From a virus (Duplodnaviria; Heunggongvirae; Uroviricota; Caudoviricetes), in the IMG/VR virus record IMGVR_UViG_2880372215_000004: DNA of 64,000 nt. One strand, written 5' to 3'. The notes below the pieces were generated by a model that saw nothing but the letters and a program-made list of their open reading frames with translations, was not told the DNA's origin and did not search any database. Below, in pieces: positions 1 through 59,789 of this stretch. Each line of letters begins with the position of its first letter. Within the stretch, counting starts at the first letter, position 1. Position numbers and translations under genes: made by a program.

Positions 1-1236
1 CTATGATAACCGCGCATTCAACATGGCTACCTGTTCGTCGTTCATGTCATCAATCCACATACCGTAAATTTCATACACCATCTGCGCAGTTTCATGCCCC
101 ATTTGGCTGGCTATAAATGCCGGGTTCGCTCCTGCCGTCAACAGCCAGCAGGCAAAAGTATGCCGCGTATGGTACGGATTACGGCGGCGAATACCAGCAC
201 GTTTTACTGCTGCATTCCACCTTGCCCCCAAACTGCTTACCGAGTAATAAGGTTTTTGTTTTCCGTTACACACCCTGGGCATGAAAACAAAATGCAGTTT
301 TTGCTTTTCGGTTCTGCCGTACTCCCGATGATAAAAGGTGATTTCGCTTTTGCGATGATGCCCGGTCAGTTTGTATTGCTCCTTCAGTGCTTCAAGAGCA
401 GGCTGCAGTAGTGTTACCGTCCGGATCCCCGCATTTGTTTTTGGGGGACCGAACATATCCAGTATCGTCAGGTTTCTTCTGACATTCACAACTCCCTTCT
501 CGAAATCCACATCCTCCCACGCCAGAGCAGCCAGTTCCCCGTGACGAAGCCCGGAGTATACGGCAAATTTCCACAAGTTCTGGCTCTGTCCTTTTTCACT
601 TTCCATTAATGCATTGAATTCTGTTTTAGATAACGGGTCAGGCTTTATTCTGTTTCTCTGTAATTTCTTTACTCCTTCAAATGGTTTGGTTGATATAAAT
701 CCCGACTGATACGCAAAACGTAACAACGAACAGAGCAGGGCGATATAGTTATCAACTGTGCGCACGGTTCTTCCTTTTTTGTTGGATCTTGGATTATCCA
801 GGTAAAGCGTTTCTCCATGCAGCAGTTCATTCCGGTAGTTTAAGATATCGCTATAACGAATATGCGATATCGGAGTACTCTCACAAATTATTATCCTGAG
901 TGTTTTTAATTGTGATTTCGTTTTCTTCATTGTGTTTGTTGTTAACTCTGTTTCTTTAATTTTTGTCCAGATATCACAAAGCTCCCCGAACGTTTTTATG
1001 ACCCTCGTTGTCACCATTTTTGCCCCAGTGCTGGACTGGGGAAAACGTCTTAAATACTCAAACTCACCGGAATTGATTTCATGAACTATCAACGCTCTTA
1101 AATTCCCGGCTTTTTTAATGTTACTGTTAGTAACCTCCCAGCCTTTCAATGTTTCCCGACATCGTTTTCCTCGAAACATGAACCAGATGCGAATGTATTT
1201 ACCTCGAATCTCGACACCTGTTGGTAATTTAGACAT
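1..1236 (-). CDS. intR: Prophage integrase (tyrosine recombinase), Rac IntR-like, 411 aa, complete
   Basis: Full-length ORF. The N-terminus MSKLPTGVEIRGKYIRIWF and the 411-aa length match my memory of K-12 Rac IntR. C-terminal catalytic region HTRHTFACW...GHETAQMVYEIYGMW. The stop codon sits at window positions 1-3. Confidence 0.9.
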   Translation of the reverse strand: MSKLPTGVEIRGKYIRIWFMFRGKRCRETLKGWEVTNSNIKKAGNLRALIVHEINSGEFEYLRRFPQSSTGAKMVTTRVIKTFGELCDIWTKIKETELTTNTMKKTKSQLKTLRIIICESTPISHIRYSDILNYRNELLHGETLYLDNPRSNKKGRTVRTVDNYIALLCSLLRFAYQSGFISTKPFEGVKKLQRNRIKPDPLSKTEFNALMESEKGQSQNLWKFAVYSGLRHGELAALAWEDVDFEKGVVNVRRNLTILDMFGPPKTNAGIRTVTLLQPALEALKEQYKLTGHHRKSEITFYHREYGRTEKQKLHFVFMPRVCNGKQKPYYSVSSLGARWNAAVKRAGIRRRNPYHTRHTFACWLLTAGANPAFIASQMGHETAQMVYEIYGMWIDDMNDEQVAMLNARLS

Positions 1237-1237
1237 A

Positions 1238-1453
1238 TCATGAGTCTTTGATAAACTGATTTATCTTTGGATAGTTATACCAGATAATCCCTCGCTTACT
1301 GTCTGGCTTCCCTAAAGGAGATACTCGTTTGAAGTGGAAGCCTTCCACCCAACAGTTCTGGCGGTATGCTTCAATTTGTCTGGCCCCCAGACCAGTGCGA
1401 AGCATCAGGCCGTATTCAACCATCCACTCTTCATTAAAGATTACTTGTGCCAT
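1238..1453 (-). CDS. xis: Excisionase (YdaQ/XisR-like), 71 aa from internal ATG
   Basis: Lies immediately upstream of int. The sequence [46 protein letters not shown] is a typical lambdoid Xis/YdaQ sequence. Start chosen at Met9 of the tracked ORF. Confidence 0.75.
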
Positions 1454-1552
1454 CGCATCACCTCTGGCAGGCGCCAATGTTAGACTTAAATTGACGCCCG
1501 ATGTTGATTATTAATAATCAGCTATGAAGTTTTAATTTGAATACAATGCAAT

Positions 1553-1753
1553 TCACGAGGACTGAAGTTTCTCGCAATTAAAATTTATCAGTTTTACTTT
1601 CTGCTCTCTGGAAACGCCTGCTTCTTTTTTACCTGAGAGCATTTTTTCGCATTCTGATTTCGTTAGTTTAGATTTTGAATATCTTGTCCAGTTAGTAGGA
1701 GTGCCACCTTCCTTTTCAATAGTGGCGGTAATTTTATACATGAACACCTCCAT
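1553..1753 (-). CDS. ydaC: Rac prophage protein YdaC-like
   Basis: MEVFMYKITATIEKEGGTPTNWTRYSKSKLTKSECEKM... recalled as K-12 YdaC, in the syntenic position between xis and ralR. Start uncertain. Confidence 0.6.
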   Translation of the reverse strand: MEVFMYKITATIEKEGGTPTNWTRYSKSKLTKSECEKMLSGKKEAGVSREQKVKLINFNCEKLQSS

Positions 1754-1778
1754 TATTATTTCCAGTGGTTCGTTTATT

Positions 1779-1928
1779 TCATCGTTCGAGTGCTTCTTTT
1801 TCACTTCCACCATAACCGGTTCGGGATTCGCATCCGTTACACTTCGCTCGGTAATATCCTGAAATGGCTTTCACCGTTACTGATGGACAACCACAAAATG
1901 GACATGGTTTAACATTGTCATATCTCAT
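1779..1928 (-). CDS. ralR: Restriction-alleviation protein Lar/RalR (49 aa, shorter C-terminus than K-12 RalR)
   Basis: Hand translation of the minus strand gives MRYDNVKPCPFCGCPSVTVKAISGYYRAKCNGCESRTGYGGSEKEALER*. It has a zinc-ribbon CxxC...CxxC pattern. Too short for the ORF track. Syntenic with Rac ralR, directly upstream of recT in coordinate terms. Confidence 0.65.
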   Translation of the reverse strand: MRYDNVKPCPFCGCPSVTVKAISGYYRAKCNGCESRTGYGGSEKEALER

Positions 1929-1983
1929 AATTTTTCTCATAAAAATATTTCAAGTTGGCGGTGCATTACACCGCCAGGCTGAA

Positions 1984-2793
1984 TTATTCCTCTGAATTAT
2001 CGATTACACTGTATTCCCCGGTTAATACAGAGGAATCTGCAGGATCGATTGTCAGTGGTTCCTTTTCATCCATTGATACTGCACGCTGGATCTCAATTGA
2101 TACGGGCAGATATTTGAACAGGCGACGAATAGCCGTTTTCTTTGCCATTTCTTCCCAGTGAGTTACCCACGGCCCGTTATTACCAGCTTTACTCTGGCTG
2201 CGCACCAGCTCAATCTGTTTGCGCGTCATAACTTCAAACTGAGTACCTCCGTCTTTCAGTCTTGCGACAGCATAGACGTGGGTAACAGGGGCATCTTCGT
2301 TTTCTCCTGGGCGGTGTATTAACTTTTCATCAAGGCCAAATTCGAAATTAAACTCGTCACCTTCACGGACAACACGGGCTGACAAGCTGGCGATTTGACC
2401 TGAACGGCGAGCCAGATCAATCATGCCTCGATAGCCAATGATTAGCTGAACGTTTTTTTTACCGCTCTTTTCGTTTTTATTACCAAAAGGCAGTAAATAT
2501 GCATGACCGAGGGCGCTACCGGGCTCAAGTCCGAGCTGTGAACACTGTACGATTGCACTGACAAAACTCATAGTGTCACAGTTTCCTAACGCCGGAACTT
2601 TACGAATTTCTGTGGTGGCGATACGGATCATACGTTCAGCCGTCATATGGCGTGGAAGAGCTGCTGCCAGTTGCTCTTTCATTGATGGCTGGTTAATAAA
2701 ACTAATCACGTCGTTATTTTTAATTGCTGCTGGTGCACGGTTTCCCTGAGTTTTTTGCAGATCGGCTTTTGCGATTGGTGGTTGCTTAGTCAT
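1984..2793 (-). CDS. recT: Recombinase RecT (single-strand annealing protein), 269 aa
   Basis: [23 protein letters not shown]...SVIDNSEE is nearly identical to K-12 RecT as I recall it. Start set at the internal ATG (Met20 of the tracked ORF), which overlaps the recE stop by 8 nt as in Rac. Confidence 0.95.
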
Positions 2794-5386
2794 TTGCATA
2801 TTCCTTAGCCCAGCGGGGCAGTGATAACGTCTTAATAGCTGGCCATTCATCGGTATTGAGGCAGTCAGCCAGGGTTCGCAGATTGCGGTGATATTCCAGC
2901 TGACCTGCCAGTTTTGCTTCTTCGCCCATCATGAAAATTTCAACCGGATAACGTCCGCATTCAATAGTTGTGCTGGCAACCAGAAAAACGAAAGTTGGCT
3001 GCACTCCAAACTGTGCTTCATAACCGTCACTGTAGAATGCATCCTGAACGTGATAGCGGTAGTCGTAATAAGCGGTTTTGAATCGTTGAATATCCGCCGT
3101 AGTTTTCACGTCCATGATCCAGTGAAATTCAGGGATAATTTTGTCCGGACGGCACCGACACAAAATTGCTGTTTCAGGATCTTCCCAGTAAATTGATGAT
3201 TCAGCGTGTCCGGCGCTTTCAACAAGCCATTGCCCCAGCGGCAAAGCCATAACGCTCTGATACATGAGTTCAATTTTCCGGCCTTCTTCGGCAGTGATAA
3301 CCGTTTTTCCTGTGCTTGCGCATTCCCTCAGAAACGCTTTCTCTTCTTCTTTTCCGGAGTTTGTCCGGCGGTTAAATTCAGGTGCTACGATAAAGCGGTT
3401 ACTGAATTCTTCCGGCTCAAGTACCCGGCAGTGGAAAGCGGTTCCTAAATCGAGCGTTTTTGTCTTTGTGGTGTCCACGGGGGCATTTTTACGCCACAAA
3501 TACAGTGCCGGAGTATCAGCAATGTCATCGAGCTGAGACTTACTGACACCGGGACCCGCGTGGTAATTCTCATTCGAAATTCCGTAATAAATACCTGGCT
3601 CTATGTCTTCTACGATTACGGGATCTGCGACTTCGCCAGTTTCATCACTGCAATCGCGATGCGGATCGCTGCCAGCATTCTCATTGTGCGGATGTTCAGC
3701 GCCTTCCATTTCCTCCGGATCATTTTCCTTAGCTTCAACCTGACTCTCTTCATCGAATGTTTCCTGGTATGTTGCGTCGCCCATCACCGCACCACAGTCA
3801 GGGCAGTTATCCCCGCCAGTCTGGCCGCAGGCATTGCAGGCTATTTCCGGTTCCTGTTGCACTACTGGCTCAGGTTGATTCATATCCGGGCTGGTTTTTT
3901 CCGTTTCTGGCTGGTTCTGGTACACACAATCGCGAGTCTGGATCCCCTTTACCCATTTCGGATCGTTCGGGTCGCTAATTCCGTCAACAAATTCACCACG
4001 TGATGCAGCAAGCAATTTATCGGCATCGACAGGATTTTTTGATGGAATGTTTTTCCGGGCTTCATGGAGTTCTGCCCGCAGTTCCTGATATTTCGCATCA
4101 ACAGAATTTACCTGTGACTGAGCATCCAGCGGCTGCGTGTCCTGATGATGTTCAGTTGCGTCCGGTTCCATTGTTTCAGCCTCTCCCTGTTCAACTGCCG
4201 TTGTTCCAGATGGTTGCGGTTTTTCTTCATCATCCTGTTTTCCTTCTTCTGTTACTCGCTGCGGCATCGGGGCAGAGGAGCGACCGCAGGCAATATCCAC
4301 GATTTCCGGATCAGGGTTGGCATGATCGGTTTCAGTCAGTACTTTGTTCAGATATTCAGTGACGTGCGCGGGGATGACCTCGATCCCAATTGGTGCTTCT
4401 TTTACGGACGCAACCACGATGGCGCGGGAATAATCCAGCCCGCCAGGCATGGTGATGAATTTGTCGCGGAAAACAGAAAAGGGCGGTTTATTTTCAGCGA
4501 TAATTTCCTCAATGCGTTTAGCGTGTGCCGGATGAAGGTTATAGATGTCCAGATCCATTGAACGGGCCAGTACGCCAGTGGCTACGTCGCGCGCCAGTGA
4601 CGTCAGATCGTGTACGAAACCTTCGCCGCGATCGGTGAGGTTTCCGCCGCCAGCATTAGCACCGGAAGCCGTGCGAGTGATGTGTGAAACACGATTACCC
4701 TTCATCCACTCTTTTGTCAGCAGTCCTCGATCGGTGTAGTCAGCGTTCAGGTATGCTTCGAAAAAAGCAGTTATCAGTCCCAGGTTTGAATTACCAGGAT
4801 TAGGGAAAACTTTGTCAGTGTCACGAACCAGTTTGTGGAGTTCGCGAATTTCCAGCGGGTCGAGCAGGCTGGTTTTGTGGGAAACAGCCAGGGCAGTAAC
4901 AGCCGGTAGTTCTTCAGCCCGAGCAATGTGTAATGCCTGGAGTCCGTCGCGTGAAACGTGCGTTACCGGTTTTTCGCTGCCGTGTTGAGCAAGCCAACGA
5001 ATGGGCAGTTCCTGGCCAGAAATTGGGAGTAGCATATTCTCCTCAATCTCAGTCATGTCTTCGCCGTTGACGTTGGTATTGCCTTGATAGTGAGCGTTGT
5101 CTGGTGCTGCTCCCGGTTTTAGTTCCCATGTCATGGAGTCTTTGCTGAGTTGATAGCGTTCACTCCAGGTAAAATCGATCTCACCTTCAGCGGGCAGGTC
5201 ATTAACGACAGGAAAATTCGTGGCAACAGCTTTAAAATAGCTGCTCAGTTTTTTACCTGACTTAACGATCAGGTAGTCCAGAGTGGCACAGGTCGATTCA
5301 AAATCGTTGCTTGCCCACAGGACGACGTCAGGTTCACCGGATGATTTTTTCGCTTTCCGTAACAGGAAGAGTGGTTTTGTGCTCAT
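2786..5386 (-). CDS. recE: Exodeoxyribonuclease VIII RecE, 866 aa
   Basis: 866-aa ORF starting [32 protein letters not shown]. The C-terminal nuclease domain precedes recT. Length and sequence match Rac RecE from memory. Confidence 0.95.
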
Positions 5387-13517: not shown

Positions 13518-14669
13518 ATGAATGTAATAGATTTGTTTTCTGGCGTTGGAGGTCTAAGTCTTGGTGCTGCACGTGCTGGATTTGATGTTAAAATGGCAGT
13601 TGAAATTGATCAACATGCTATTAATACTCACGCAATTAATTTTCCAAGAAGTTTGCACGTCCAAGAAGATGTTTCTTTACTAAATGCAGAAATAATTAAG
13701 GGTTTTTTTAAAAACGATATGCCCATAGATGGTATTATTGGCGGTCCTCCGTGCCAAGGATTTAGTTCAATAGGCAAGGGGAATCCTGATGATAGCAGGA
13801 ATCAGCTTTACATGCATTTCTACCGTTTAGTATCAGAATTACAGCCATTATTCTTTTTGGCAGAAAATGTTCCAGGTATTATGCAAGAGAAATATTCTGG
13901 CATTAGAAATAAAGCATTTAATTTGGTTAGCGGTGATTATGATATTCTTGATCCCATCAAGGTAAAAGCATCTGATTATGGTGCTCCAACTATTCGAACT
14001 AGATATTTTTTTATCGGTGTAAAAAAATCATTGAAGCTTGATATTTCAGATGAAGTATTTATGCCTAAAATGATTGATCCGGTTACTGTAAAAGATGCTT
14101 TGTATGGATTACCAGATATTATCGATGCCAATTGGCAATCAGACTCTGAGAGTTGGCGAACAATTAAAAAAGATCGAAAAGGGGGATTTTATGAAAAATT
14201 ATGGGGGCAGATCCCTCGGAATGTTGGTGATACAGAATCGATCGCTAAGTTAAAAAATAATATCATATCTGGATGTACCGGAACATTACATAGCAAAATC
14301 GTCCAAGAGCGTTATGCTTCCTTATCTTTTGGGGAAACTGATAAAATTTCAAGATCTACAAGATTAGATCCAAATGGTTTTTGCCCGACTTTAAGGGCGG
14401 GAACCGCTAGAGATAAAGGAAGCTTTCAAGCCGTCAGGCCGATCCACCCTTATCATCCAAGAGTGATTACACCAAGAGAAGCTGCTAGATTACAAGGCTT
14501 CCCTGATTGGTTTCGCTTTCATGTAACTAAATGGCATAGTTTCAGACAAATAGGAAATAGCGTGTCACCAATAGTTGCTGAATATATATTAAAGGGGCTG
14601 TACAATTTATTAAATAAAAGAGTACAGCCCGAATATTTAAACCATAATTCTTTGGAAGTTAGGGTATAA
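13518..14669 (+). CDS. DNA (cytosine-5)-methyltransferase, 383 aa
   Basis: All diagnostic C5-MTase motifs are present: I DLFSGVGGLSLG, IV GGPPCQGFS, VI FLAENVPG, VIII TIRTRYFFIG, IX RVITPREAARLQGFPDWF and X QIGNSVSP. Confidence 0.95.
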   Translation: MNVIDLFSGVGGLSLGAARAGFDVKMAVEIDQHAINTHAINFPRSLHVQEDVSLLNAEIIKGFFKNDMPIDGIIGGPPCQGFSSIGKGNPDDSRNQLYMHFYRLVSELQPLFFLAENVPGIMQEKYSGIRNKAFNLVSGDYDILDPIKVKASDYGAPTIRTRYFFIGVKKSLKLDISDEVFMPKMIDPVTVKDALYGLPDIIDANWQSDSESWRTIKKDRKGGFYEKLWGQIPRNVGDTESIAKLKNNIISGCTGTLHSKIVQERYASLSFGETDKISRSTRLDPNGFCPTLRAGTARDKGSFQAVRPIHPYHPRVITPREAARLQGFPDWFRFHVTKWHSFRQIGNSVSPIVAEYILKGLYNLLNKRVQPEYLNHNSLEVRV

Positions 14670-15629
14670 CCTATAGTATTTATAATAGTTATCCCGTTCA
14701 TTTTCGTTTAAAGAGAACTCTTCAGCGGCTGCCTGATATGCTTCTTTATCAGGCAGTTTACTATCTAAATTTATCTTTTCTTTAATTGTTAGTGTTGGTA
14801 TTGCTATTTCTTGCACGTCTTCCCAATTTGTTGAATAAAATTGCCAGTTAGAAAGGTCGCATGCCTTAGATAACTCTATATATTCTTGTTCTGAGGAGAA
14901 AAAACCTGATATTGTCAACATGGTATGACTGCCATCATTATATTGATTTAAGGATAATGGGTAATACTGAATCTTATCCTTACGTCCTGAAAGACCACGT
15001 TCTATTGCTGATCTAAAAGCGTTTGTAATAATTCGTATTAAAAGAGCTTTAATCTTACGATCTGAAAGATCTGCATTTGATATCTGAAGATTAAAATCAA
15101 GATACTTTTTCCCAAGCAATGATTTTAATGAATTAATAAAAGCTTCTTTAAAAATATCTAAACTTTCTCCAACTCTACGTTGGTAATAAGAACTAGGATT
15201 TATGGGGAAGGTGACCTTCAAAATATCAAAAGAGCTTACTTTAGTACTTAGTAAGTGTATATCATCTAGATCCGTTTGTATTTTTTTCGGGGAGGCATAG
15301 TCTAACCATGTTATTGATGGTTTAGAAAAACTATAATCAAGAATAAAGTCATGAGCTGATATTAGCTTACAATCAATACAATTATAAGGCAAATTATATT
15401 TTTGTCTGATGTGAGTAGACTCTTGTTCTTCGAGAGAAATCATATCAGAAAGAGCGATACGATTATGCATGATTCTAAAATCTTCAAGCATCGGACCACC
15501 AAAACCTATATATGTATATTCTTGAATATTTAGTCTTTTGCTTAAGAGGTTTAGGCTTTCGAGAAAAATCTCTCTATCAATAGACTTATTATGCCTTAAG
15601 TGATAGGGAATGTATTGTCCAGACATCAC
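14637..15629 (-). CDS. Unknown 330-aa partner of the MORC-like ATPase. The N-terminal half has a Rossmann/SAM-MTase-like motif pattern
   Basis: The GTG/ATG start overlaps the upstream stop (GTGATG), indicating translational coupling. Motifs are YTYIGFGGPMLEDF, MISLEEQES and ITWLDYASP. The C-terminus ends YYKYYRLYPNFQRIMV. The 3' end overlaps the convergent MTase gene by 33 nt. Confidence 0.7.
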   Translation of the reverse strand: MMSGQYIPYHLRHNKSIDREIFLESLNLLSKRLNIQEYTYIGFGGPMLEDFRIMHNRIALSDMISLEEQESTHIRQKYNLPYNCIDCKLISAHDFILDYSFSKPSITWLDYASPKKIQTDLDDIHLLSTKVSSFDILKVTFPINPSSYYQRRVGESLDIFKEAFINSLKSLLGKKYLDFNLQISNADLSDRKIKALLIRIITNAFRSAIERGLSGRKDKIQYYPLSLNQYNDGSHTMLTISGFFSSEQEYIELSKACDLSNWQFYSTNWEDVQEIAIPTLTIKEKINLDSKLPDKEAYQAAAEEFSLNENERDNYYKYYRLYPNFQRIMV

Positions 15630-17017
15630 TTCACCTCTTCAATCACCGTATCAAAGCATTGCATCCCCACATCAGAAGCGCTAGCATCTTCATGTCCAAA
15701 GAAATATTTAGATAAAATTTTAACATCTTCTTTCTCTCTGGTGAAGATTATTCGTACAGTAGAGCTTTTTTTTACTGGGGTAGGCAGCTTAGGTGTATAT
15801 CGCCACTCATTTTTGTTTCTATTAGGGTTGGACCAGTTATTTTTTTTATCTTCTGGAGTTGATTGTGGGGTAATTTCAAATAAAGATTGAGCTTCATGTG
15901 ACTGAGCTGACTTAAGTAATTTTTTCCCTTCTTCAAGATGCTCACCTTTCCACTGATTGGTGAATCGAATAAAATGCATCATCCCTTCAATCATTTTATT
16001 TCGTACATCATTGTACAATGTAGAACTAAGATCGACACCTCGTTTCGTTGTTGTTATTGGTAATTTTTCTGGGTTTTTACTGGTAAAGCGAACAACCCCA
16101 GAAATTGCTATAAATTGGGTATGAAACCTTGGTACATTAGCAAAGCCCCAACCTGTGAGATGTGTCTTATCACAATATAGAACAACGCGGTCATTGCAAA
16201 TGACAGTCCATCCAGCATCATCAGAACTCCTTTTTTCTAAAACATCATCATTGTCATCTTCTAAATTTTTATAGAAGCCAACAACTAAATCGATATCAAC
16301 ATCGTCTATTTTAGCTTTATATATGTATGGTTCTATTTTAGAATGATCAGTTATGATGTTAATCGGATTATGTTCAACAACAACTCCATTTAATTCTATT
16401 TTAAATCCTTTTTGAATAATAAATGACAATGAGTGTTTTATCTGTAAAAAGAGATCAGTAAGATATGTGCTCTCATTAAATTTTTGTGCCACATTAGAAT
16501 GGAGTTTTTTTATCTCTATAGTTGTGCCTGTTGGATTTTTGTTATCATAGTCACTCTCGTGCATCGGTATTTTCCAACCATCACCATCGATCCAATCAGG
16601 TGTTATATCTACAGTGAATGCGCCATCGGGATTATTCGATTGTATTGAGCAATCTCTACCCATTTTAAAAATGGCTCTTTTCATACCAATACCATAGACG
16701 CCAACGGTGCCTTCATTTTCTTCTTCTTTTTGATGGGGTCGTCCCATTTTAAAAGCATATTCTCGGAAGCTTTTAGGGATACCTCCGCAATTGTCTTCTA
16801 TAATAAAGACATCTTTATTAATCGTAAGTTTCGCATAAAATCCTTCATATGGTTTTGAAGTTTTTTTTGTGTCTTTTATTGTACGTAAAGCCCCATCGAC
16901 GCAGTTATCAAGCAGATCAAGTATGGCATCGTTTAAGTCGATATCTCGAGTTAGCATACTTACAAAAAATCTTTTACTAGGACTAAAGTCTGCTGTTGGA
17001 GTCGTGTTCTCAGTCAT
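15626..17017 (-). CDS. MORC-like GHKL (Bergerat-fold) ATPase, 463 aa
   Basis: N-box DLLDNCVDGA, G1 box IIEDNCGGIP and G2 box GVYGIGMKRAIF. An S5-like transducer segment follows: GWTVICNDRVVLYCDKTHLTGWG...FIAISGVVRFTS...LPITTTKRGVDLSS. Confidence 0.85.
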   Translation of the reverse strand: MTENTTPTADFSPSKRFFVSMLTRDIDLNDAILDLLDNCVDGALRTIKDTKKTSKPYEGFYAKLTINKDVFIIEDNCGGIPKSFREYAFKMGRPHQKEEENEGTVGVYGIGMKRAIFKMGRDCSIQSNNPDGAFTVDITPDWIDGDGWKIPMHESDYDNKNPTGTTIEIKKLHSNVAQKFNESTYLTDLFLQIKHSLSFIIQKGFKIELNGVVVEHNPINIITDHSKIEPYIYKAKIDDVDIDLVVGFYKNLEDDNDDVLEKRSSDDAGWTVICNDRVVLYCDKTHLTGWGFANVPRFHTQFIAISGVVRFTSKNPEKLPITTTKRGVDLSSTLYNDVRNKMIEGMMHFIRFTNQWKGEHLEEGKKLLKSAQSHEAQSLFEITPQSTPEDKKNNWSNPNRNKNEWRYTPKLPTPVKKSSTVRIIFTREKEDVKILSKYFFGHEDASASDVGMQCFDTVIEEVK

Positions 17018-18116: not shown

Positions 18117-18406
18117 TGGTGAATTTACGTAAAGCGGCTAAAGGCCAGATATGCCAGATCAGAATCCCTGGCTACTGCAATCACAATCCCGAAACCTCTG
18201 TGCTGGCGCATTACAGGCTGGCGGGAACGTGCGGAACAGCGATAAAGCCACACGATATGCAGGCAGCGATTGCCTGTAACTCATGCCACGATTTAATCGA
18301 CGGGAGAGTAAAAACCAGCGATTACACCAAAGAAGAATTGCGCCTGATGCATGCAGAAGGTGTTTTTCGCACACAAGAGATCTGGAGAAAGGACGGTTAT
18401 TTATGA
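18116..18406 (+). CDS. ybcO: YbcO-like putative nuclease (DUF1364), 96 aa
   Basis: MVNLRKAAKGQICQIRIPGYCNHNPETSVLAHYRLAGTCG...CNSCHDLIDG carries a Cys/His metal site. Same size as DLP12 YbcO. Confidence 0.75.
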   Translation: MVNLRKAAKGQICQIRIPGYCNHNPETSVLAHYRLAGTCGTAIKPHDMQAAIACNSCHDLIDGRVKTSDYTKEELRLMHAEGVFRTQEIWRKDGYL

Positions 18407-18957
18407 TTTACCCAACGAACACAGGAAAAAGCGGAGAGCACCTTCGTCTCACCACGCTGGAAAGTGTCTGGATTCAGGGGAAACTACGTATGTGGGGGCG
18501 CTGGTCGTATATTGGCGGCGGTAAGACGGGAAATATGTTCAACCAGTTGCTGACCTCTAAAAAGCTGACAAAAACGGCAATTAACGAGGCGCTCCGGAGG
18601 ATGAAAAAAGCAGGTCTGGACAAACCTAAACTTGAGGCTTTTTTGCGGGATATGATCAACGGCAAGCAAAAAAGCTGGCTGGTGCATTGTACCGATTCAG
18701 AGGCGTTAATAATCGACAGGGTTATTGGTGAAGTACTGGCAGGTTATCCCGGGCTGCTCAATGTTCTGAGTCAGCGTTATGTGGGGCGGGGGATGACTAA
18801 GCGCAAAATGGCTGAACTGCTGAATGATGCACATCCGGAATGGAGTTTAAGAACCTGTGAAAGACGCATTGAGCATTGGCTAAAGGTGGCAGAATTTATT
18901 TTGTACAAACCAATGGTTATGGCTTTTGGTATAGAGAAAAAAGTTATTGCTTTTTGA
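18403..18957 (+). CDS. Late-gene antiterminator Q-like protein, 184 aa
   Basis: Start ATG 18403 overlaps the ybcO stop (ATGA). Last gene before the tRNA and late region. Assigned to the EHEC-type Q family from memory. Confidence 0.7.
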   Translation: MIYPTNTGKSGEHLRLTTLESVWIQGKLRMWGRWSYIGGGKTGNMFNQLLTSKKLTKTAINEALRRMKKAGLDKPKLEAFLRDMINGKQKSWLVHCTDSEALIIDRVIGEVLAGYPGLLNVLSQRYVGRGMTKRKMAELLNDAHPEWSLRTCERRIEHWLKVAEFILYKPMVMAFGIEKKVIAF

Positions 18958-19033: not shown

Positions 19034-19058
19034 AACCCGCCATTGAGCGGGTTTTTTA
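19034..19058 (+). terminator. Rho-independent terminator downstream of Q (tR'-like candidate)
   Basis: AACCCGC-CATTGA-GCGGGTT followed by TTTTTATT. Confidence 0.6.
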
Positions 19059-19096
19059 TTGCGGAATTAATTACGGACCGTTATTATTCTGCTCCC

Positions 19097-19172
19097 GGCC
19101 CTTTAGCTCAGTGGTGAGAGCGAGCGACTCATAATCGCCAGGTCGCTGGTTCAAATCCAGCAAGGGCCACCA
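19097..19172 (+). tRNA. ileZ: tRNA with CAU anticodon, ileX/ileZ-like (Ile2, or Met)
   Basis: 76-nt cloverleaf GGCCCTT...AAGGGCCACCA with anticodon loop CTCATAA. Closely resembles E. coli ileX and the Stx-phage ileZ from memory. Confidence 0.85.
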
Positions 19173-19272
19173 TCACAAACCGCCATTAGCTTATCAGGAA
19201 GAGCAGACGACACCATAACAGGGTTGTTGGTGCGGGGGCGGGTCCCCGATGGCGGTCCATTATCGGTATTCT

Positions 19273-19349
19273 GCGTTGTTAGCTCAGCCGGACAGAGCAA
19301 TTGCCTTCTAAGCAATCGGTCAGTGGTTCGACTCCACTACAACGCGCCA
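19273..19349 (+). tRNA. tRNA-Arg (UCU), reads rare AGA/AGG codons
   Basis: 77-nt cloverleaf: acceptor GCGTTGT/ACAACGC, anticodon arm ATTGC-CTTCTAA-GCAAT, T arm AGTGG-TTCGACT-CCACT, 3' GCCA. Confidence 0.85.
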
Positions 19350-19362
19350 CACTTATTTTCCA

Positions 19363-19387
19363 GGCTCGCTTCGGCGGGCCTTTTTTG
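19363..19387 (+). terminator. Rho-independent terminator after the tRNA pair
   Basis: GGCTCGC-TTCG-GCGGGCC followed by TTTTTTG. Confidence 0.6.
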
Positions 19388-19518
19388 TATCTGCGCCACG
19401 CCCGGCGCATATCAACCACAGAGCCTTTCGGGGGTGAGCTTACGGAGTGGTCAGTGTGACTTTCTCTGTGGGCAGATCGCTCCCGGGCGTTGGCTCACCC
19501 ACCCAAAGGAACGTCACG

Positions 19519-19950
19519 ATGTTTGGAATCTTCAAAAAGAAAACCCGCAGAGCGGCAGCGGAAATTAAAAAGTTTGAGAAACGCGATCTGGCACAGGCGG
19601 TGATTAACGCTGCATACCTGGTGGCCTATGCAGATGGTGAATGCGAGGCATCCGAGAAAGCGAAGATCGAACAGGTCTTACGTAATCAGCCTGCGTTGTC
19701 TGCGTTTACCTCGGAAATTAATGCGATTAGCGCAACTATTATCGGTCAGCTGGATACCAATTTTAAAATTGGTCGTCGTGCCGCGTTACGCGAGATTGAG
19801 GATGTGAAACACGATACGCGTGAAGCGGAAGATGTGCTGGATGTGGCGGTGGCCATTGCGGAGGCAGACGGCGAAATTGAGCCGGAAGAGCGCAAGGTGC
19901 TGGAAGAGATTGCCGGTGTTCTGGGTCTTCGTCTGGAGAATCACCTGTGA
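19519..19950 (+). CDS. TerB-like (tellurite-resistance TerB family) protein, 143 aa
   Basis: MFGIFKKKTRRAAAEIKKFEKRDLAQAVINAAYLVAYADGECEASEKAKIEQVL...AVAIAEADGEIEPEERKVLEEIAG. The paired ADGE motifs are typical of TerB. Confidence 0.65.
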   Translation: MFGIFKKKTRRAAAEIKKFEKRDLAQAVINAAYLVAYADGECEASEKAKIEQVLRNQPALSAFTSEINAISATIIGQLDTNFKIGRRAALREIEDVKHDTREAEDVLDVAVAIAEADGEIEPEERKVLEEIAGVLGLRLENHL

Positions 19951-20114
19951 CGGTAAAACTGCGCCTGGCTGTGGCTGCACTCCTGCTGTTTCTGGTGGTG
20001 ATGGTGGATTTCACCAGCAGAATCATGTCGGTGCTGGCGGATGGGGTGCTGGTCTGCGGCATTGTGGTATTGCTGTGGCCGGTGATAAAAAGAAACAGCC
20101 TGCATAATGCTTGA
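19947..20114 (+). CDS. Small hydrophobic protein (55 aa) translationally coupled to the TerB-like gene
   Basis: The GTG overlaps the terB-like stop (GTGA). Hand translation gives VTVKLRLAVAALLLFLVVMVDFTSRIMSVLADGVLVCGIVVLLWPVIKRNSLHNA*. Below the track cut-off. Confidence 0.35.
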   Translation: MTVKLRLAVAALLLFLVVMVDFTSRIMSVLADGVLVCGIVVLLWPVIKRNSLHNA

Positions 20115-20281
20115 TTTTTTTGTTTGCTGTTTATTAAAAACACTTCTGCATGGTGAATCCCCCTGTGCGGAGGGGCGATCAGCAACCAGGTATATGGGAT
20201 AATCGCGGATTCAGGTGCTGATACTGAATTCACCGGGAGGCACCCGGCACCATGCAAGAAAAAGAATGTGCATGCAAACAT

Positions 20282-20306
20282 GCCCCTCTCCGGAGGGGCT
20301 TTTTTA
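20282..20306 (+). terminator. Rho-independent terminator
   Basis: GCCCCTC-TCCG-GAGGGGC followed by TTTTTTAT. Confidence 0.6.
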
Positions 20307-20524
20307 TGGGTAAAAAATGCCCGAATGGGTTCGGGCAATAGCATGAGATACTGATATTGTTGTGTTGTTATCGTGTGGATTTTAACCAGGGTTTATCAGG
20401 CTGCGCAACTGCGTGGCCTTTTTTCATTTCTTGGGCTGTAGTCCCCGAGTGTCATTCAGGCTTCCGGACTACAGCCAGCCCACTCCATATCTGATTTAAT
20501 ACACTATCCCGGCCGGGAGGAATA

Positions 20525-22378
20525 ATGACATTTAAACATTATGATGTTGTCAGGGCGGCGTCGCCGTCAGACCTTGCGGAAAAGCTGACACACAAACTGA
20601 AAGAGGGCTGGCAGCCATACGGCGGACCGGTTGCCATTACGCCGTACACACTGATGCAGGCGGTGGCTATTGAAGGAGAGCCACAGGTCGGCCCTTCATC
20701 TGAGCCGGATTGGTACTACGTCATCGTACTGGCCGGGCAGTCCAATGCCATGGCTTACGGTGAAGGGCTTCCGCTGCCGGATTCATACGATGCTCCGGAT
20801 CCGCGCATTAAACAGCTGGCGCGCCGCAGTACAGTGACGCCGGGCGGGGCTGCCTGCAGATATAACGATATTATTCCGGCTGACCACTGTCTGCATGATG
20901 TGCAGGATATGAGTACGCTGAATCATCCGAGGGCTGACCTGAGCAAAGGGCAGTACGGCTGTGTCGGCCAGGGTTTACATATTGCCAAAAAACTGCTCCC
21001 GTATATCCCGAATAACGCGGGGATCCTGCTGGTACCATGCTGTCGTGGTGGTTCGGCATTTACCCAGGGCGCGGAGGGGACATTCAGCGAGTCCACGGGG
21101 GCCAGTCAGGATTCGGCACGCTGGGGGGTGGGCAAGCCGTTATATCAGGATCTGATTTCCCGCACAAAAGCGGCATTGCAGAAAAATCCCAAAAACGTTC
21201 TGCTGGCCGTCTGCTGGATGCAGGGTGAGTTTGACATGAGCGCCGCCACCCACGCACAGCAACCTGCGCTGTTTACAGCCATGCTGACACAGTTTCGTGC
21301 TGACCTCTCCGTGTTTAACGCGCAGTGCCATGGTGGCAGCGCTGCAGATGTGCCGTGGATTTGTGGTGACACGACGTATTACTGGAAAAATACATACGCT
21401 ACCCAATACGACACCGTGTACGGCGGGTATAAAAACAGGGAGAGTGAGGGCGTTTATTTTGTGCCCTTCATGACAGACGGTAACGGCGTCAATACCGCCA
21501 CTAACGCGCCGGCAGAAGATCCGGATATTCCGGCATCAGGATATTACGGTGCGGCATCGAGAACGAATGGAAACCAGGTATCATCAAACCGCCCGACACA
21601 TTTCAGTTCATGGGCGCGCAGGAGCATTATTCCGGATCGTCTGGCAACCGCTATTCTGAACGCAGCCGGGCGCACCTCCGCCTTCATCAGTGGTAAGGCA
21701 CCGGAAATCAAACCCTCGCCCGGCGGCAACACGCCATCGGGTCCGTCTGCAGATACGTCCGTTCGCACAATCTCCCTGCTGCCGGCAGCCGGAGAGGCTG
21801 CTGCGCAGGGCTGGAGCATTAAGGATGGCGGAATTCAGTTGTCAGATGGTGTATTTAAGATCACCAGGCAGAGCAATAAAACCTGGTCCCTGACGCATCC
21901 GGTGGATGACGCAATTACCCTGCTGACACAGGGCGGCAGACTGAACTGTAAGTTCCGCCTGTCAGGCGCACTGACCAACAATCAGTTCGGGCTGGGGATT
22001 TATCTGTATACGGATGCTCCCGTTCCTGATGGTGTGGCGATGACGGGTACCGGTAATCCGTTCCTGATGTCGTACTTCACTCAGACCACTGACGGCAGAG
22101 TGAATCTGATGCATCACAGGAAAGCCGGAAACACGAAGCTGGGGGAGTTCGGCGATTACGGTAACGACTGGCAGACGCTGGAGCTGGTGTTCACCGCCGG
22201 CAGTGCCACGGTTACTCCGAAACTGAATGGAGTGGCTGGCCCGGCATTCCAGGTTATAAAAGACAGTCTGACACTGGGACTGAATGCGCTGACGCTGACG
22301 GATGTTACAAAAAATGCAGCGTATGGCGTTGAGATAGAAAGTCTGGTGCTGGAGATAAATGCACCGGCATCATCATAA
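20525..22378 (+). CDS. nanS-p: Prophage sialate O-acetylesterase NanS-p, 617 aa
   Basis: N-terminal DUF1737-like [43 protein letters not shown] block [18 protein letters not shown]. Located between the Q-tRNA region and the holin, as in EHEC lambdoid phages. Confidence 0.8.
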
Positions 22379-22527
22379 AAAGTGAGCCAGTCAAATGGAA
22401 GGTATCGTTAAACTCACCGGTAGTGTCAGTGGGTCGTCTGAGACGCCTGCATGAGTTATCAGAGCCATCAGTAGTTAACTGGTGGCTTTTTTATTGTTGT
22501 CAGCTTCCGGATAACGGGAGACGGGGT

Positions 22528-22743
22528 ATGTACCAGATGGAAAAAATCACAACAGGTGTGTCATACACCACGTCAGCGGTAGGGACGGGATACTGGTTAC
22601 TGCAACTGCTGGACAAAGTCTCTCCGTCCCAGTGGGTGGCAATAGGTGTACTGGGGAGTCTGCTGTTTGGCCTGCTGACGTATCTGACTAACCTGTATTT
22701 CAAAATCAGGGAGGACCGCCGTAAGACGGCGCGGGGAGACTAA
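22528..22743 (+). CDS. Holin S, 71 aa
   Basis: [66 protein letters not shown]. Dual Met start and two TM segments. Matches the 933W-type holin from memory. Confidence 0.85.
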
Positions 22744-23676: not shown

Positions 23677-23949
23677 GCAGAATATTTTGCTGAAAAATGA
23701 CGTTGGCCAGCGCGGGCGGATAACACGAAATCCTGCGAACTGGCAAAATGTAAGTGAATAAAGTTAGGCAGATTATTTCACGCAGAGGCACCGTAATGGT
23801 GCCTTTGTCATTTCTGCGCTTCGCACAAGCGTAAATAAACCAAAGAACCTTTCAGGATGAGCCCTGGTGGATAACCGGCAGTGGTCTGGTTAACCCTCTT
23901 TGGGCTGGTTATTCCTGTGCGCAGGGTTCATCACTAAAAGGAATCAACC

Positions 23950-24645
23950 ATGAAAGAGATGATTTCTGTCGATCATGAAATATCCATGAGTAGTCTGGAT
24001 TTTCTGAATAACATTATTAATCCAGCCCGGGCAGAAGCCGGAGAAGTCCCTCATGAACCGCGTAAGTTTCTTGCAAAAATTGAGGATGAGCTAGAGCTTG
24101 ATGGAACCGGAAAAAAATTCCGGTTAAACAATAACCAGACAAGAACGGCATACTATGATCTGGATTTTGACCAGATGATGCTCGTTGGCATGAGGGAGTC
24201 AAAGGCCGTTCGTCGTTCTGTGCTGGCAAGACTCAAAGCGATGCATGGTATTCAGATCCCCCGGACTTTACCTGAGGCGTTGCGATTTGCGGCAAAACTG
24301 GCTGAACAGAAAGCAGTGCTGGAAAATCAACTGGCAATAGCAGCGCCGAAGGCTGAATTTGTTGATAACTATGTTGAAGCATCTGGTCTGATGGGATTCC
24401 GGGAAGTTGCTAAGTTACTCGGTATCAAAGAAACCGATTTCCGGCTGTTTTTGTTGGAGAACGGAATAATGTATCGCCTCGCTGGAAAAATGACGCCTTA
24501 CTCGCATCACCTGGATGCGGGGCGGTTTAGCGTGAAAACGGGCGAGGCGGGCAATGGTCATGCTTTTACGCAGGTTAAATTCACCCCAAAAGGTGTTCAG
24601 TGGATTGCTGGTCTGCTTGCTGCATGGAGAGCTACCGCAGCATGA
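23950..24645 (+). CDS. Antirepressor-like protein (Rha-type N-terminus plus KilAC/Ant C-terminal domain), 231 aa
   Basis: C-terminal PKAEFVDNYVEASGLMGFREVAKLLGIKETDFRLFLLENGIMYR is typical of the KilA-C/ANT domain. Inserted inside the lysis cassette. Confidence 0.7.
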   Translation: MKEMISVDHEISMSSLDFLNNIINPARAEAGEVPHEPRKFLAKIEDELELDGTGKKFRLNNNQTRTAYYDLDFDQMMLVGMRESKAVRRSVLARLKAMHGIQIPRTLPEALRFAAKLAEQKAVLENQLAIAAPKAEFVDNYVEASGLMGFREVAKLLGIKETDFRLFLLENGIMYRLAGKMTPYSHHLDAGRFSVKTGEAGNGHAFTQVKFTPKGVQWIAGLLAAWRATAA

Positions 24646-59731: not shown

Positions 59732-59789
59732 TAAAAAGGGCGGCAGAGCAGCCACGGAGTAAAACTGATACCGCCAAACGTCACCAGAA
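59732..59789 (-). ncRNA. dicF: DicF sRNA
   Basis: The minus strand reads TTTCTGGTGACGTTTGGCGGTATCAGTTTTACTCCGTGGCTGCTCTGCCGCCCTTTTT. This is nearly identical to K-12 DicF from memory, and it is followed by the conserved spacer and dicB. Confidence 0.85.

Follow-up and report, generated by a model that had tools for sequence, protein, structure and literature searches.

What does a prophage keep at the place where its Stx-converting relatives keep the Shiga toxin genes, and of what use to it is the substitute? The question is raised by prophage Sp10 of Escherichia coli O157:H7 Sakai, which is what the window analysed here, the whole 64,000-nucleotide stretch of IMG/VR record IMGVR_UViG_2880372215_000004, turns out to be (19350-20524 matches both Sakai Sp10 and EDL933 at 100% identity). 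Comparison with the Stx2 prophage Sp5 shows 19398-20129 to be a self-contained accessory cassette, or moron, in the Q-to-lysis stretch of Sp10. It holds two overlapping genes, tciA for a TerB-family protein and tciB for a small membrane protein, headed by a structured RNA leader predicted to bury the Shine-Dalgarno sequence (SD) of tciA. The gene pair is not new, having annotated entries in RefSeq, Pfam and PHROGs; the pseudoknotted leader family matches no Rfam family and is, as far as the searches show, the new part. The components are:

19388 to 19518, + strand: structured 5' leader of tciA, about 131 nucleotides (nt), from conservation, covariation and folding z-score
19519 (ATG) to 19950 (TGA), + strand: tciA, cytoplasmic TerB-fold protein of 143 amino acids (aa), from Pfam TerB PF05099, phrog_632 and fold search
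19947 (GTG) to 20114, + strand: tciB, DUF3927 two-helix membrane protein of 55 aa, from Pfam DUF3927, phrog_1470 and hydropathy

Is this really the toxin slot? The original prediction had read the order Q, tRNA(CAU), tRNA-Arg(UCU), cargo, nanS-p, holin as that of Stx-converting phages, with the cargo standing where stx stands. ARAGORN, Pfam and the Sakai and RefSeq annotation bear out the order, and the flanks compared by blastn bear out the slot, the same site holding stx2AB in Sp5. The surroundings on which this depends, together with the small RNAs (sRNAs) on the right, are:

18403 to 18957, + strand: Q-like late antiterminator gene (Pfam DUF1133 E=8.8e-106, Phage_antitermQ E=4e-8)
19034 to 19057, + strand: hairpin AACCCGC/GCGGGTT followed by a U run, just 3' of Q
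19097 to 19172, + strand: tRNA with anticodon CAU (ileZ, tRNA-Ile2), from ARAGORN, Rfam tRNA (72.5 bits) and Sakai annotation
19273 to 19349, + strand: tRNA-Arg (UCU), argO, from ARAGORN, Rfam and Sakai annotation
19362 to 19387, + strand: intrinsic-terminator-like hairpin and U run (terminator scan), immediately 5' of the leader
20119 to 20311, + strand: STnc100-family sRNA, of the PasD/EcOnc27 relatives (Rfam RF02076, 145.8 bits)
20282 to 20306 (20282 to 20299 in the terminator scan), + strand: terminator hairpin and U run, the 3' end of STnc100
20312 to 20373, - strand: AgvB anti-GcvB sRNA, EcOnc01a/AgvB1 of Sp10 (Rfam RF02702, 96.5 bits), convergent with STnc100
20398 to 20419: intrinsic terminator (terminator scan)
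20525 to 22378, + strand: nanS-p-type sialate O-acetylesterase gene (Pfam DUF1737, SASA and DUF6645; RefSeq 'SASA family carbohydrate esterase')
22528 to 22743, + strand: class II holin (phage 21 S type) with which the lysis cassette begins (Pfam Phage_holin_2_1 E=1.7e-32)

In Sp5 the sequence of events is Q, ileZ, argN, argO, stx2A, stx2B, about 490 nt, a nanS-p homologue and the holin. By blastn Sp10 is 87% identical to it over 19057-19397 and 74% identical from 20130 on; as the homology breaks off at about 19397 and is taken up again at 20130, what lies between, namely leader, tciA and tciB, takes the place of stx2AB and is bounded by the same backbone sequences. On the left those are tRNA-Arg and the terminator at 19362-19387, a hairpin common to both prophages since the Sp5 homology spans it; on the right they are STnc100, a convergent anti-sRNA and nanS-p, STnc100 and such an anti-sRNA following the cargo in both. 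The gene at 18403-18957, a 'phage antiterminator' in the Sakai annotation, bounds the accessory region of the late operon on the left, and the hairpin just 3' of it, read directly from the sequence and absent from the simple terminator-scan list, would by analogy with lambdoid pR'-tR' be a tR'-like terminator. That the site downstream of pR' is a moron insertion site with convergent sRNAs was described by Tree et al. (2014, PMC4104026) for Sp3, 4, 5, 9, 10, 11, 15 and 17, with EcOnc01a/AgvB1 placed in Sp10. Other occupants include remnants with iraM and, in phage 434 (2112-3344 of its locus), a 247-aa multi-pass membrane protein, a DUF3927/TciB protein and a 62-aa transmembrane (TM) protein; as DUF3927 is there paired with an unrelated 247-aa protein, it appears able to pair with other proteins. 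In enterohaemorrhagic E. coli (EHEC), then, the stx slot holds now toxin, now a phage accessory module directed to the membrane.

At the right border one element changes owner. The 'strong terminator' originally ascribed to the cargo at 20282-20306 exists, hairpin and U run both, but it belongs to the sRNA STnc100 and not to the cargo. Because it lies within STnc100, a family that also follows stx2B in Sp5 (PMC12711010), it is phage backbone and no part of tciAB. The start of STnc100 is 5 nt beyond the tciB stop. As Sp5 homology begins only at 20130, a promoter for STnc100 would have to sit in the non-homologous cargo, and the sRNA may arise by processing or termination from the 3' end of whichever cargo is upstream.

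Are the two reading frames genes, and is the first of them truly of the TerB family? The 143-aa frame starting at 19519 has AAAGG 10 nt 5' of its ATG, and the TerB assignment has survived profile, sequence and fold searches alike. Pfam TerB PF05099 scores 60.2 bits against a cut-off of 24.4, with residues 26-138 covering model positions 2-109 of 118; PHROGs places TciA in phrog_632, 'tellurite resistance' (E=1.7e-69); and with phmmer residues 14-137 align to the solved Klebsiella TerB 2JXU (E=4.4e-8). The AlphaFold2 model (pLDDT 89, pTM 0.83) is all-helical with eight helices, and its top Foldseek matches are 2h5n (probability 1.00, TM score 0.55-0.62) and 2ou3, a COG3793 tellurite-resistance protein of TerB-like structure. 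Across 22 homologues the duplicated A-D-G-x5-E motifs (D39/G40/E46 and D117/G118/E124) vary hardly if at all, and they may be ligand or metal sites. Weak matches to NCBIfam DjlA (E=1e-6) and Pfam DUF533 (E=3e-5) fall on the TerB-like region; as both scores are far under the family cut-offs, DjlA reaching 28.6 bits against 162 with only its TerB-like part aligned, TciA stands outside both families. A longer GTG start at 19447 was set aside: it adds no domain, lies inside the conserved leader and is unused in RefSeq.

The second frame, tciB, overlaps tciA by GTGA and is, as originally described from the letters, a 55-codon frame with two TM segments, its coordinates and coupling agreeing with what Pfam and hydropathy say of it. 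DUF3927 (PF13064) scores 62.3 bits against a cut-off of 25, PHROGs gives phrog_1470, 'TciB-like' (E=4e-30), and the protein has the length of about 50-60 aa, the two hydrophobic segments and the D-F-T-S / S-V-L-A-D-G core of that family. Hydrophobic peaks at about residues 5-21 and 29-47, with basic residues at both ends, would fit an N-in/C-in hairpin. DUF3927 is a small family, 111 representative clusters at E<=1e-3 and nearly all of them standalone; 'DUF3927 domain-containing' matches of the H154 type were discarded as pseudogene remnants among insertion sequence (IS) elements. Against homologues from other genera the ratio of nonsynonymous to synonymous substitution (dN/dS) is 0.02-0.08 for tciA, where synonymous sites are saturated (dS >1.5), and 0.23-0.47 for tciB; on this pattern of substitution both are real genes under purifying selection and not chance open reading frames (ORFs). 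An antisense ORF at 19763-20344 on the - strand, opposite tciA, tciB and STnc100 and annotated in Sakai as ECs_1960 (173-193 aa), is probably spurious, as it has no Pfam family and no EDL933 PGAP annotation, and antisense stop-free stretches are common and variable in the homologues.

How widely is the pair kept together? At 80 IMG/VR loci a DUF3927 gene stands immediately 3' of the TerB gene in all, and at 18 of 23 species-level loci a coupled hydrophobic ORF of 49-58 aa follows it with overlaps of -1, -4 or -8 and the core motif VDF(T/S)S...S(V/I)(L/V)(A/S)D (VDFTS...SVLADG). Those loci span Franconibacter, Pantoea, Enterobacter, Pseudescherichia, Buttiauxella, Serratia and Pectobacterium, besides metagenome-assembled genomes (MAGs) of Aeromonadaceae, Bilophila and Desulfovibrio. 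At the loci without DUF3927 (Pseudomonas, Paracoccus, Halomonas) the gene coupled downstream of TerB codes for another small TM protein. In Pseudomonas juntendi (3441-3644) and a Paracoccus MAG (3398-3604) it has 67-68 aa, with one TM helix and then a conserved C..YGY...(K/Q)..P.VGC.VKT..G.V.R.ELR tail; it is a second family of small TerB partners. At the 80 loci TciA is 97-100% identical and the adjoining TciB 53-100%, a mosaic joint falling on the gene overlap or close to it; either TciB alleles are exchanged or they evolve much faster than TciA. Among 5,426 complete E. coli genomes, searched at blastn sensitivity, tciAB is at least 80% present in 802; prevalence is put at 15-23%, and the cassette is frequent in EHEC.

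The cargo had been called unexplained, which is correct for its function and not for its identity: it is the homologue of the tciA/tciB pair of phage P1 (PHROGs 632 and 1470), TciA being 42% identical over full length and TciB about 53-58%, with the same arrangement of a TerB-family gene and an immediately coupled DUF3927 gene. Sakai ECs_1959 is a 'TciA/TerB-like protein', and EDL933 RefSeq has a 'tellurite resistance TerB family protein' and a 'DUF3927 family protein'. With P1 TciC as tblastn query no match rises above chance: all are short, of 3-9 residues (best E = 0.015), and no plausible ORF downstream of tciB contains one. In P1 the two genes lie in the C1-repressed ban operon, and the P1vir transcriptome has tciA/B/C transcribed in lytic infection. 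The pair is also in the lambdoid phages JLK-2012 and Evi, in phage Fostie directly 5' of two holin genes, in the virulent N4-like phage Pollock and in the lytic Erwinia jumbo phage ChrisDB. Papers that name phage TerB genes do so by annotation only.

What, then, precedes the pair? Whatever DNA is upstream, the leader travels with tciA. The leader and the tciA 5' end occur in 1,235 of the 5,426 complete E. coli genomes, the leader always joined to tciA, and in Pantoea, Franconibacter, Enterobacter, Pseudescherichia and Buttiauxella it is still 77-83% identical, in loci whose synonymous tciA sites have reached saturation. TerB alleles mutually only 40-45% identical share one leader variant; since a single variant precedes such strongly diverged alleles, recombination at the joint between leader and coding sequence is indicated. 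The comparative model has these helices:

19393-97 with 19404-08, + strand: P0
19399-403 with 19485-89, + strand: P5, from the P0 loop to a downstream site
19416-23 with 19464-71, + strand: P1
19424-28 with 19505-09, + strand: anti-SD with SD
19432-40 with 19492-500, + strand: P2
19444-52 with 19475-83, + strand: P3

On this model anti-SD:SD, P2 and P3 would stack as one long hairpin burying the SD, with P1 and P5 crossing it as pseudoknots. In a 26-hit alignment, P3 being left out of the count, 91.4% of cells pair. Covariation was counted in it over 32 pairs: 22 pairs show changes on both sides as compared with 8.5 ± 2.0 in shuffles, none of 500 shuffles reaching 22, and the covariation score is 0.297 as compared with 0.131 in shuffles and at most 0.082 with slid partners. 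As P1 and P5 were in the search model those two are biased toward it; P0 and P2 were not, and there compensatory changes are found in 4 of 5 and 7 of 9 pairs. Diverged copies, read by eye, keep every helix with different sequences, P5 for example as CGCCC/GGGCG, CGCACA/UGUGCG, UCUCAC/GUGAGA or UUCGCG/CGCGAA, and the anti-SD/SD helix as CCUUU/AAAGG or, in diverged copies, CUUAG/CUAAG and CUUUG/CAAAG. The folding z-score against shuffles is -2.35 for the + strand and -0.88 for the - strand. The covarying structure pairs the SD directly 5' of the start codon. A single-sequence minimum-free-energy fold was rejected in favour of the comparative model, being less conserved (88% paired, one helix 83%).

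Might it be an RNA already known? Rfam 15 has no gathering-level match for the leader, and at E<=10 only chance-level ones lie inside it (e.g. MIR156, 14 bits against a gathering threshold of 62); the best E<=10 match, STnc100 (E=0.02, 19.5 bits against 47), falls on the upstream terminator hairpin, 19351-19392. Identity with a known riboswitch or other RNA was rejected on these negatives. Nor is it a Pas or EcOnc sRNA: PasA and PasC lie between esterase and holin, PasD is an STnc100 relative, and for Sp10 Tree et al. 2014 (PMC4104026) have no sRNAs other than EcOnc01a and EcOnc11. A literature search found no earlier description of the element.

The leader is not confined to tciA. A covariance model built from 35 leaders finds a second, diverged copy in the window itself, which follows a terminator hairpin (23787-23803), extends through the ATG of a KilAC-domain antirepressor gene (23950-24645; Pfam ANT E=2.7e-28; between the endolysin and the Rz region) and keeps P0, P1, P2, P3 and P5 through compensatory changes. 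In ChrisDB a copy lies between tRNA-Cys and TerB, and weaker copies are 5' of HNH endonuclease genes and of unknown genes. These copies are:

23811 to 23952, + strand: second leader copy of the window (72.4 bits, E about 1e-18)
Locus L126, 1790 to 1928, - strand: leader-family copy
Locus L155, 2005 to 2134, - strand: leader-family copy
Locus L135, 3697 to 3815: leader-family copy
Locus L138, 12124 to 12238: leader-family copy
Locus L233 (ChrisDB), 1453 to 1593: leader-family copy

The ChrisDB copy begins 9 nt after tRNA-Cys, where other phages have the terminator hairpin. Scanning IMG/VR by pattern and then applying the model adds 61 matches (L234-L333), and 57 of them lead into an ORF of 40 aa or more. 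The proteins downstream fall into 12 clusters, among them Rha-like and Ant antirepressors, a glycosyltransferase, HNH (HNH/AP2) endonucleases, a tail-fibre-like protein and small unknown proteins. When the distinct copies are taken together (62), 48 follow a terminator-like hairpin and U run, an SD of CUAAAAGGAAA type is present in every one and 61 end on ATG. E. coli YJ1 has two decayed copies with a truncated tciA 5' end (1810-1930 and 3853-4099) among IS66, IS100, IS4 and ISEcp1-blaCMY-2, annotated as a 'DUF3927 domain-containing' pseudogene; these remnants have been scattered by IS activity.

How far can one go from such a structure to its purpose? The effect could be constitutive damping of translation, a switch, stabilisation of the mRNA after tRNA processing, or a c4-like action in trans. 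With the balance nearly level, though tilting slightly towards doubt, we propose that the element of about 115-142 nt represents an undescribed doubly pseudoknotted leader-RNA family, a 'terminator-leader-ATG' module that would gate translation of accessory (moron) genes in enterobacterial phages, that its P1 and P5 loop-target pairs may be variant-specific switches like those of P1 c4/immI, and that tciAB would need a specific signal in order to be made. Confirmation would make the element a riboregulator, widespread and so far unannotated, of many phage accessory genes, and would explain the low or conditional expression of morons within a very strongly transcribed late operon.

From where would the message come? 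A promoter scan found no sigma-70-like site on the + strand from Q to nanS-p, and manual inspection upstream of tciAB found no conserved -10 element, so a promoter of the pair's own was rejected. Because no such promoter is upstream, late Q-dependent transcription is plausible, and the simplest source of tciAB mRNA would be Q-modified polymerase from pR'. High late transcription need not, however, give much protein, since the terminator at 19362-19387 and the SD-pairing leader precede the pair.

The function that we favour, tentatively and with doubt somewhat outweighing belief, is that of a late Q-transcribed, leader-throttled cassette whose membrane-tethered TerB module protects the inner membrane of the infected cell. 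Having no promoter of its own, the cassette would be part of the pR'/Q-antiterminated late transcript that reads through the flanking terminators. In that transcript the long hairpin of anti-SD:SD, P2 and P3, clamped by the pseudoknots P1 and P5, would mask the ribosome-binding site (RBS) and keep TciA and TciB output low or conditional. TciB would hold TciA to the inner membrane on its cytoplasmic side, as a split version of the DjlA/YebE or TerB-TerC architecture; it is read as anchor or partner because it is a separate co-translated 55-aa protein and because other lineages use other small TM partners. So tethered, the TerB module may sense or buffer a ligand or metal, and may stabilise the inner membrane and the proton-motive force against pore-forming or depolarising insults and superinfecting phage (Phi/PacB-type Ter activity). 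It would serve the phage in lytic growth, being neither a toxin nor a tellurite-resistance gene of the lysogen; a benefit during phage development is suggested because virulent and jumbo phages keep the pair and lytic-cycle operons hold it. Protection of the inner membrane or proton-motive force, or exclusion of competitors, is the most economical guess. A TerC-TerB inner-membrane complex has been reported (PMC12054061), and Iyer et al. (2021, PMC7824862) proposed that phage Ter components and standalone TerB serve in competition with superinfecting phages.

Several points weigh against membrane protection. Late expression is poor timing for superinfection exclusion. Assignment to a known defence system was rejected: PADLOC-DB 2.0 gives TciA only a chance-level match (PDC-S48, E=0.0035, no stretch passing) and TciB none. 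In P1 the name 'tci' was given by homology only, and CRISPR interference knock-down has tciA, tciB and tciC non-essential for plaque formation; the literature search found no functional experiment on any TciA or TciB. The phage 434 slot has no TerB, and its 247-aa protein no Pfam family. TerB-DUF3927 fusions would have argued for a complex, but the six long proteins considered (P0004, P0066, P0248, P0289, P0299 and P0002) are frameshifts, chimeras or N-terminal over-extensions. Whether the leader represses, activates or stabilises is deduced from its structure. As for expression of this copy, a literature search found no paper on ECs1959, and there is nothing in the EDL933 RNA-seq and Ribo-seq supplements, and the adjacent STnc100 copy, most probably 'STnc100_7' of EDL933 (matched by position and strand), is the lowest in abundance among the 11 STnc100 copies of the EDL933 study.

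Could TciAB instead be a stress gene of lysogenic conversion, giving the lysogen resistance to tellurite, metals or oxidative stress? The 'tellurite resistance' annotation implies as much, TerB homology is full-length, ter operons do give tellurite and Zn/Mn-related phenotypes (PMC12054061), and the cassette is common in complete E. coli genomes and frequent in EHEC. Yet TerC-TerD has been reported to be the minimal tellurite-resistance unit (PMC12054061), and neither TerC, TerD nor any other Ter gene is among the neighbours (tRNAs, DUF3927, STnc100, nanS-p). O157 has a separate ter island (PMC2241611), the pair lacks an upstream promoter and has its SD sequestered, and virulent phages, which never form lysogens, keep it. 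We regard this as unlikely. The same low likelihood is given to a part in lysis timing, in which TciB, with help from TciA, would act on holin triggering or on the proton-motive force in an antiholin-like or lysis-delaying manner. The position of the lambdoid pair between Q and the lysis cassette, its place directly before two holin genes in Fostie and the likeness of TciB, a small two-helix membrane protein, to holins and antiholins speak for it. Against these have to be set the distance of the pair from lysis genes in P1, Pollock and ChrisDB, the two sRNAs and 1.9-kb nanS-p gene separating it from the holin in Sp10, and the lack of any Pfam holin family match for TciB.

A different doubt concerns the leader: is it conserved solely as a DNA-level recombination linker, a module boundary and not a functional RNA? 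Lambdoid mosaic joints do use short conserved linkers, and the occurrence of one leader variant on TerB alleles 40-45% identical points to recombination at just this joint. However, five helices are kept by compensatory changes in almost completely diverged copies, the + strand is favoured both by G-U pairs and by the folding z-score, and 61 of 62 copies end exactly on ATG with the SD at fixed distance; we judge the linker improbable, more so than either of the two foregoing proposals. Less probable again is host take-over by cell-division inhibition or envelope remodelling, a third meaning of 'tci', for which there are the P1 annotation, the grouping of tciA/B/C with icd and kilA in the P1vir transcriptome paper and the link of ter operons to Yersinia filamentation (PMC4633105); it rests on names, Pfam, NCBIfam and PHROGs show no similarity to known division inhibitors, and the Yersinia work is on the whole terZABCDE operon. 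Least probable of all is that TciAB is a tRNA-cluster accessory, for instance sensing or protecting translation capacity, as suggested by its place within or beside tRNA clusters in the four unrelated lineages listed below, for tRNAs and morons gather in the same permissive regions, no tRNA is near the pair in Pollock or Fostie, and the TerB fold has no known RNA-related activity.

Sp10, 19097-19349: tRNAs Ile2 and Arg
JLK-2012, 3599-3832 of its locus: tRNAs Asn, Thr and Gly
P1, 2116-3776 of its locus: trnA and trnT upstream, trnI downstream
ChrisDB, 976-3610 of its locus: tRNAs Trp and Cys upstream, five tRNAs downstream

Whichever function is involved, tciAB is the smallest natural TerB system, of two genes as against seven in ter operons; as it is so small, very common, and kept by temperate, virulent and jumbo phages, it is a tractable handle on what TerB domains do.

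Elsewhere in the window, between the replication/nin region and Q, 14600-17017 on the - strand codes at 15626-17017 for an ATP-binding protein of 463 aa and has an O-methyltransferase-like gene, with a DNA methylase gene upstream (Sakai ECs_1953-1955); together they may be a restriction/defence or anti-defence island; PADLOC has no match for the 463-aa ATPase. The esterase-holin spacer, 22379-22527, contains a strong hairpin and U run at 22461-22489, and the Pas sRNA preprint places PasA/PasC in such a spacer, a correspondence of position. Two further sRNAs are:

1557 to 1735, + strand: RalA antitoxin sRNA (Rfam, 225 bits)
59738 to 59789, - strand: copy of DicF sRNA (Rfam, 75 bits)

To which known systems is the cassette akin? 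The closest is P1 tciA-tciB(-tciC), also a TerB gene with a coupled DUF3927 gene, accessory and with adjacent tRNA genes. There, however, the operon is early and repressor-controlled, whereas in Sp10 it would be late and Q-dependent; P1 has tciC and Sp10 no TciC homologue; and the structured leader of Sp10 has no model match in the P1 locus. With TerB of terZABCDE(F) TciA shares family and fold over the whole protein, but ter operons are in an island or plasmid setting, while the Sp10 pair is in a phage with no TerD, TerZ, TerA or TerE. In the TerB-TerC complex (PMC12054061) a cytoplasmic TerB is likewise paired with an integral membrane protein, there multi-pass TerC, here a 55-aa DUF3927 hairpin. 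The TerB-like domain is held at the membrane in DjlA and YebE/DUF533 too, but by a TM segment of their own, in contrast to Sp10 where the anchor would be a separate polypeptide and there is no J domain. In those proteins the domain is at the cytoplasmic face of the inner membrane, where the Sp10 module would also be.

For the leader the likeness is to upstream RNA that pairs near the RBS of an accessory gene. In immI of P1/P7 the c4 antisense RNA masks the icd/ant RBS, and T4 homing-endonuclease genes have RBS-sequestering hairpins 5' of them. Common ground is also that paired segments co-vary between phage variants and that the genes controlled are of like kind, antirepressors and HNH endonucleases; the leader does not, however, match Rfam C4 or any other family, and has five helices and two pseudoknots. 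Finally, in the stx slot of Sp5/933W everything around the cargo recurs: Q, tRNAs, terminator, then STnc100 with a convergent anti-sRNA, nanS-p and holin. The anti-sRNA is AgvB in Sp10 and AsxR in Sp5, and the cargo is stx2AB in Sp5 but in Sp10 tciAB, behind a leader that would mask its SD.

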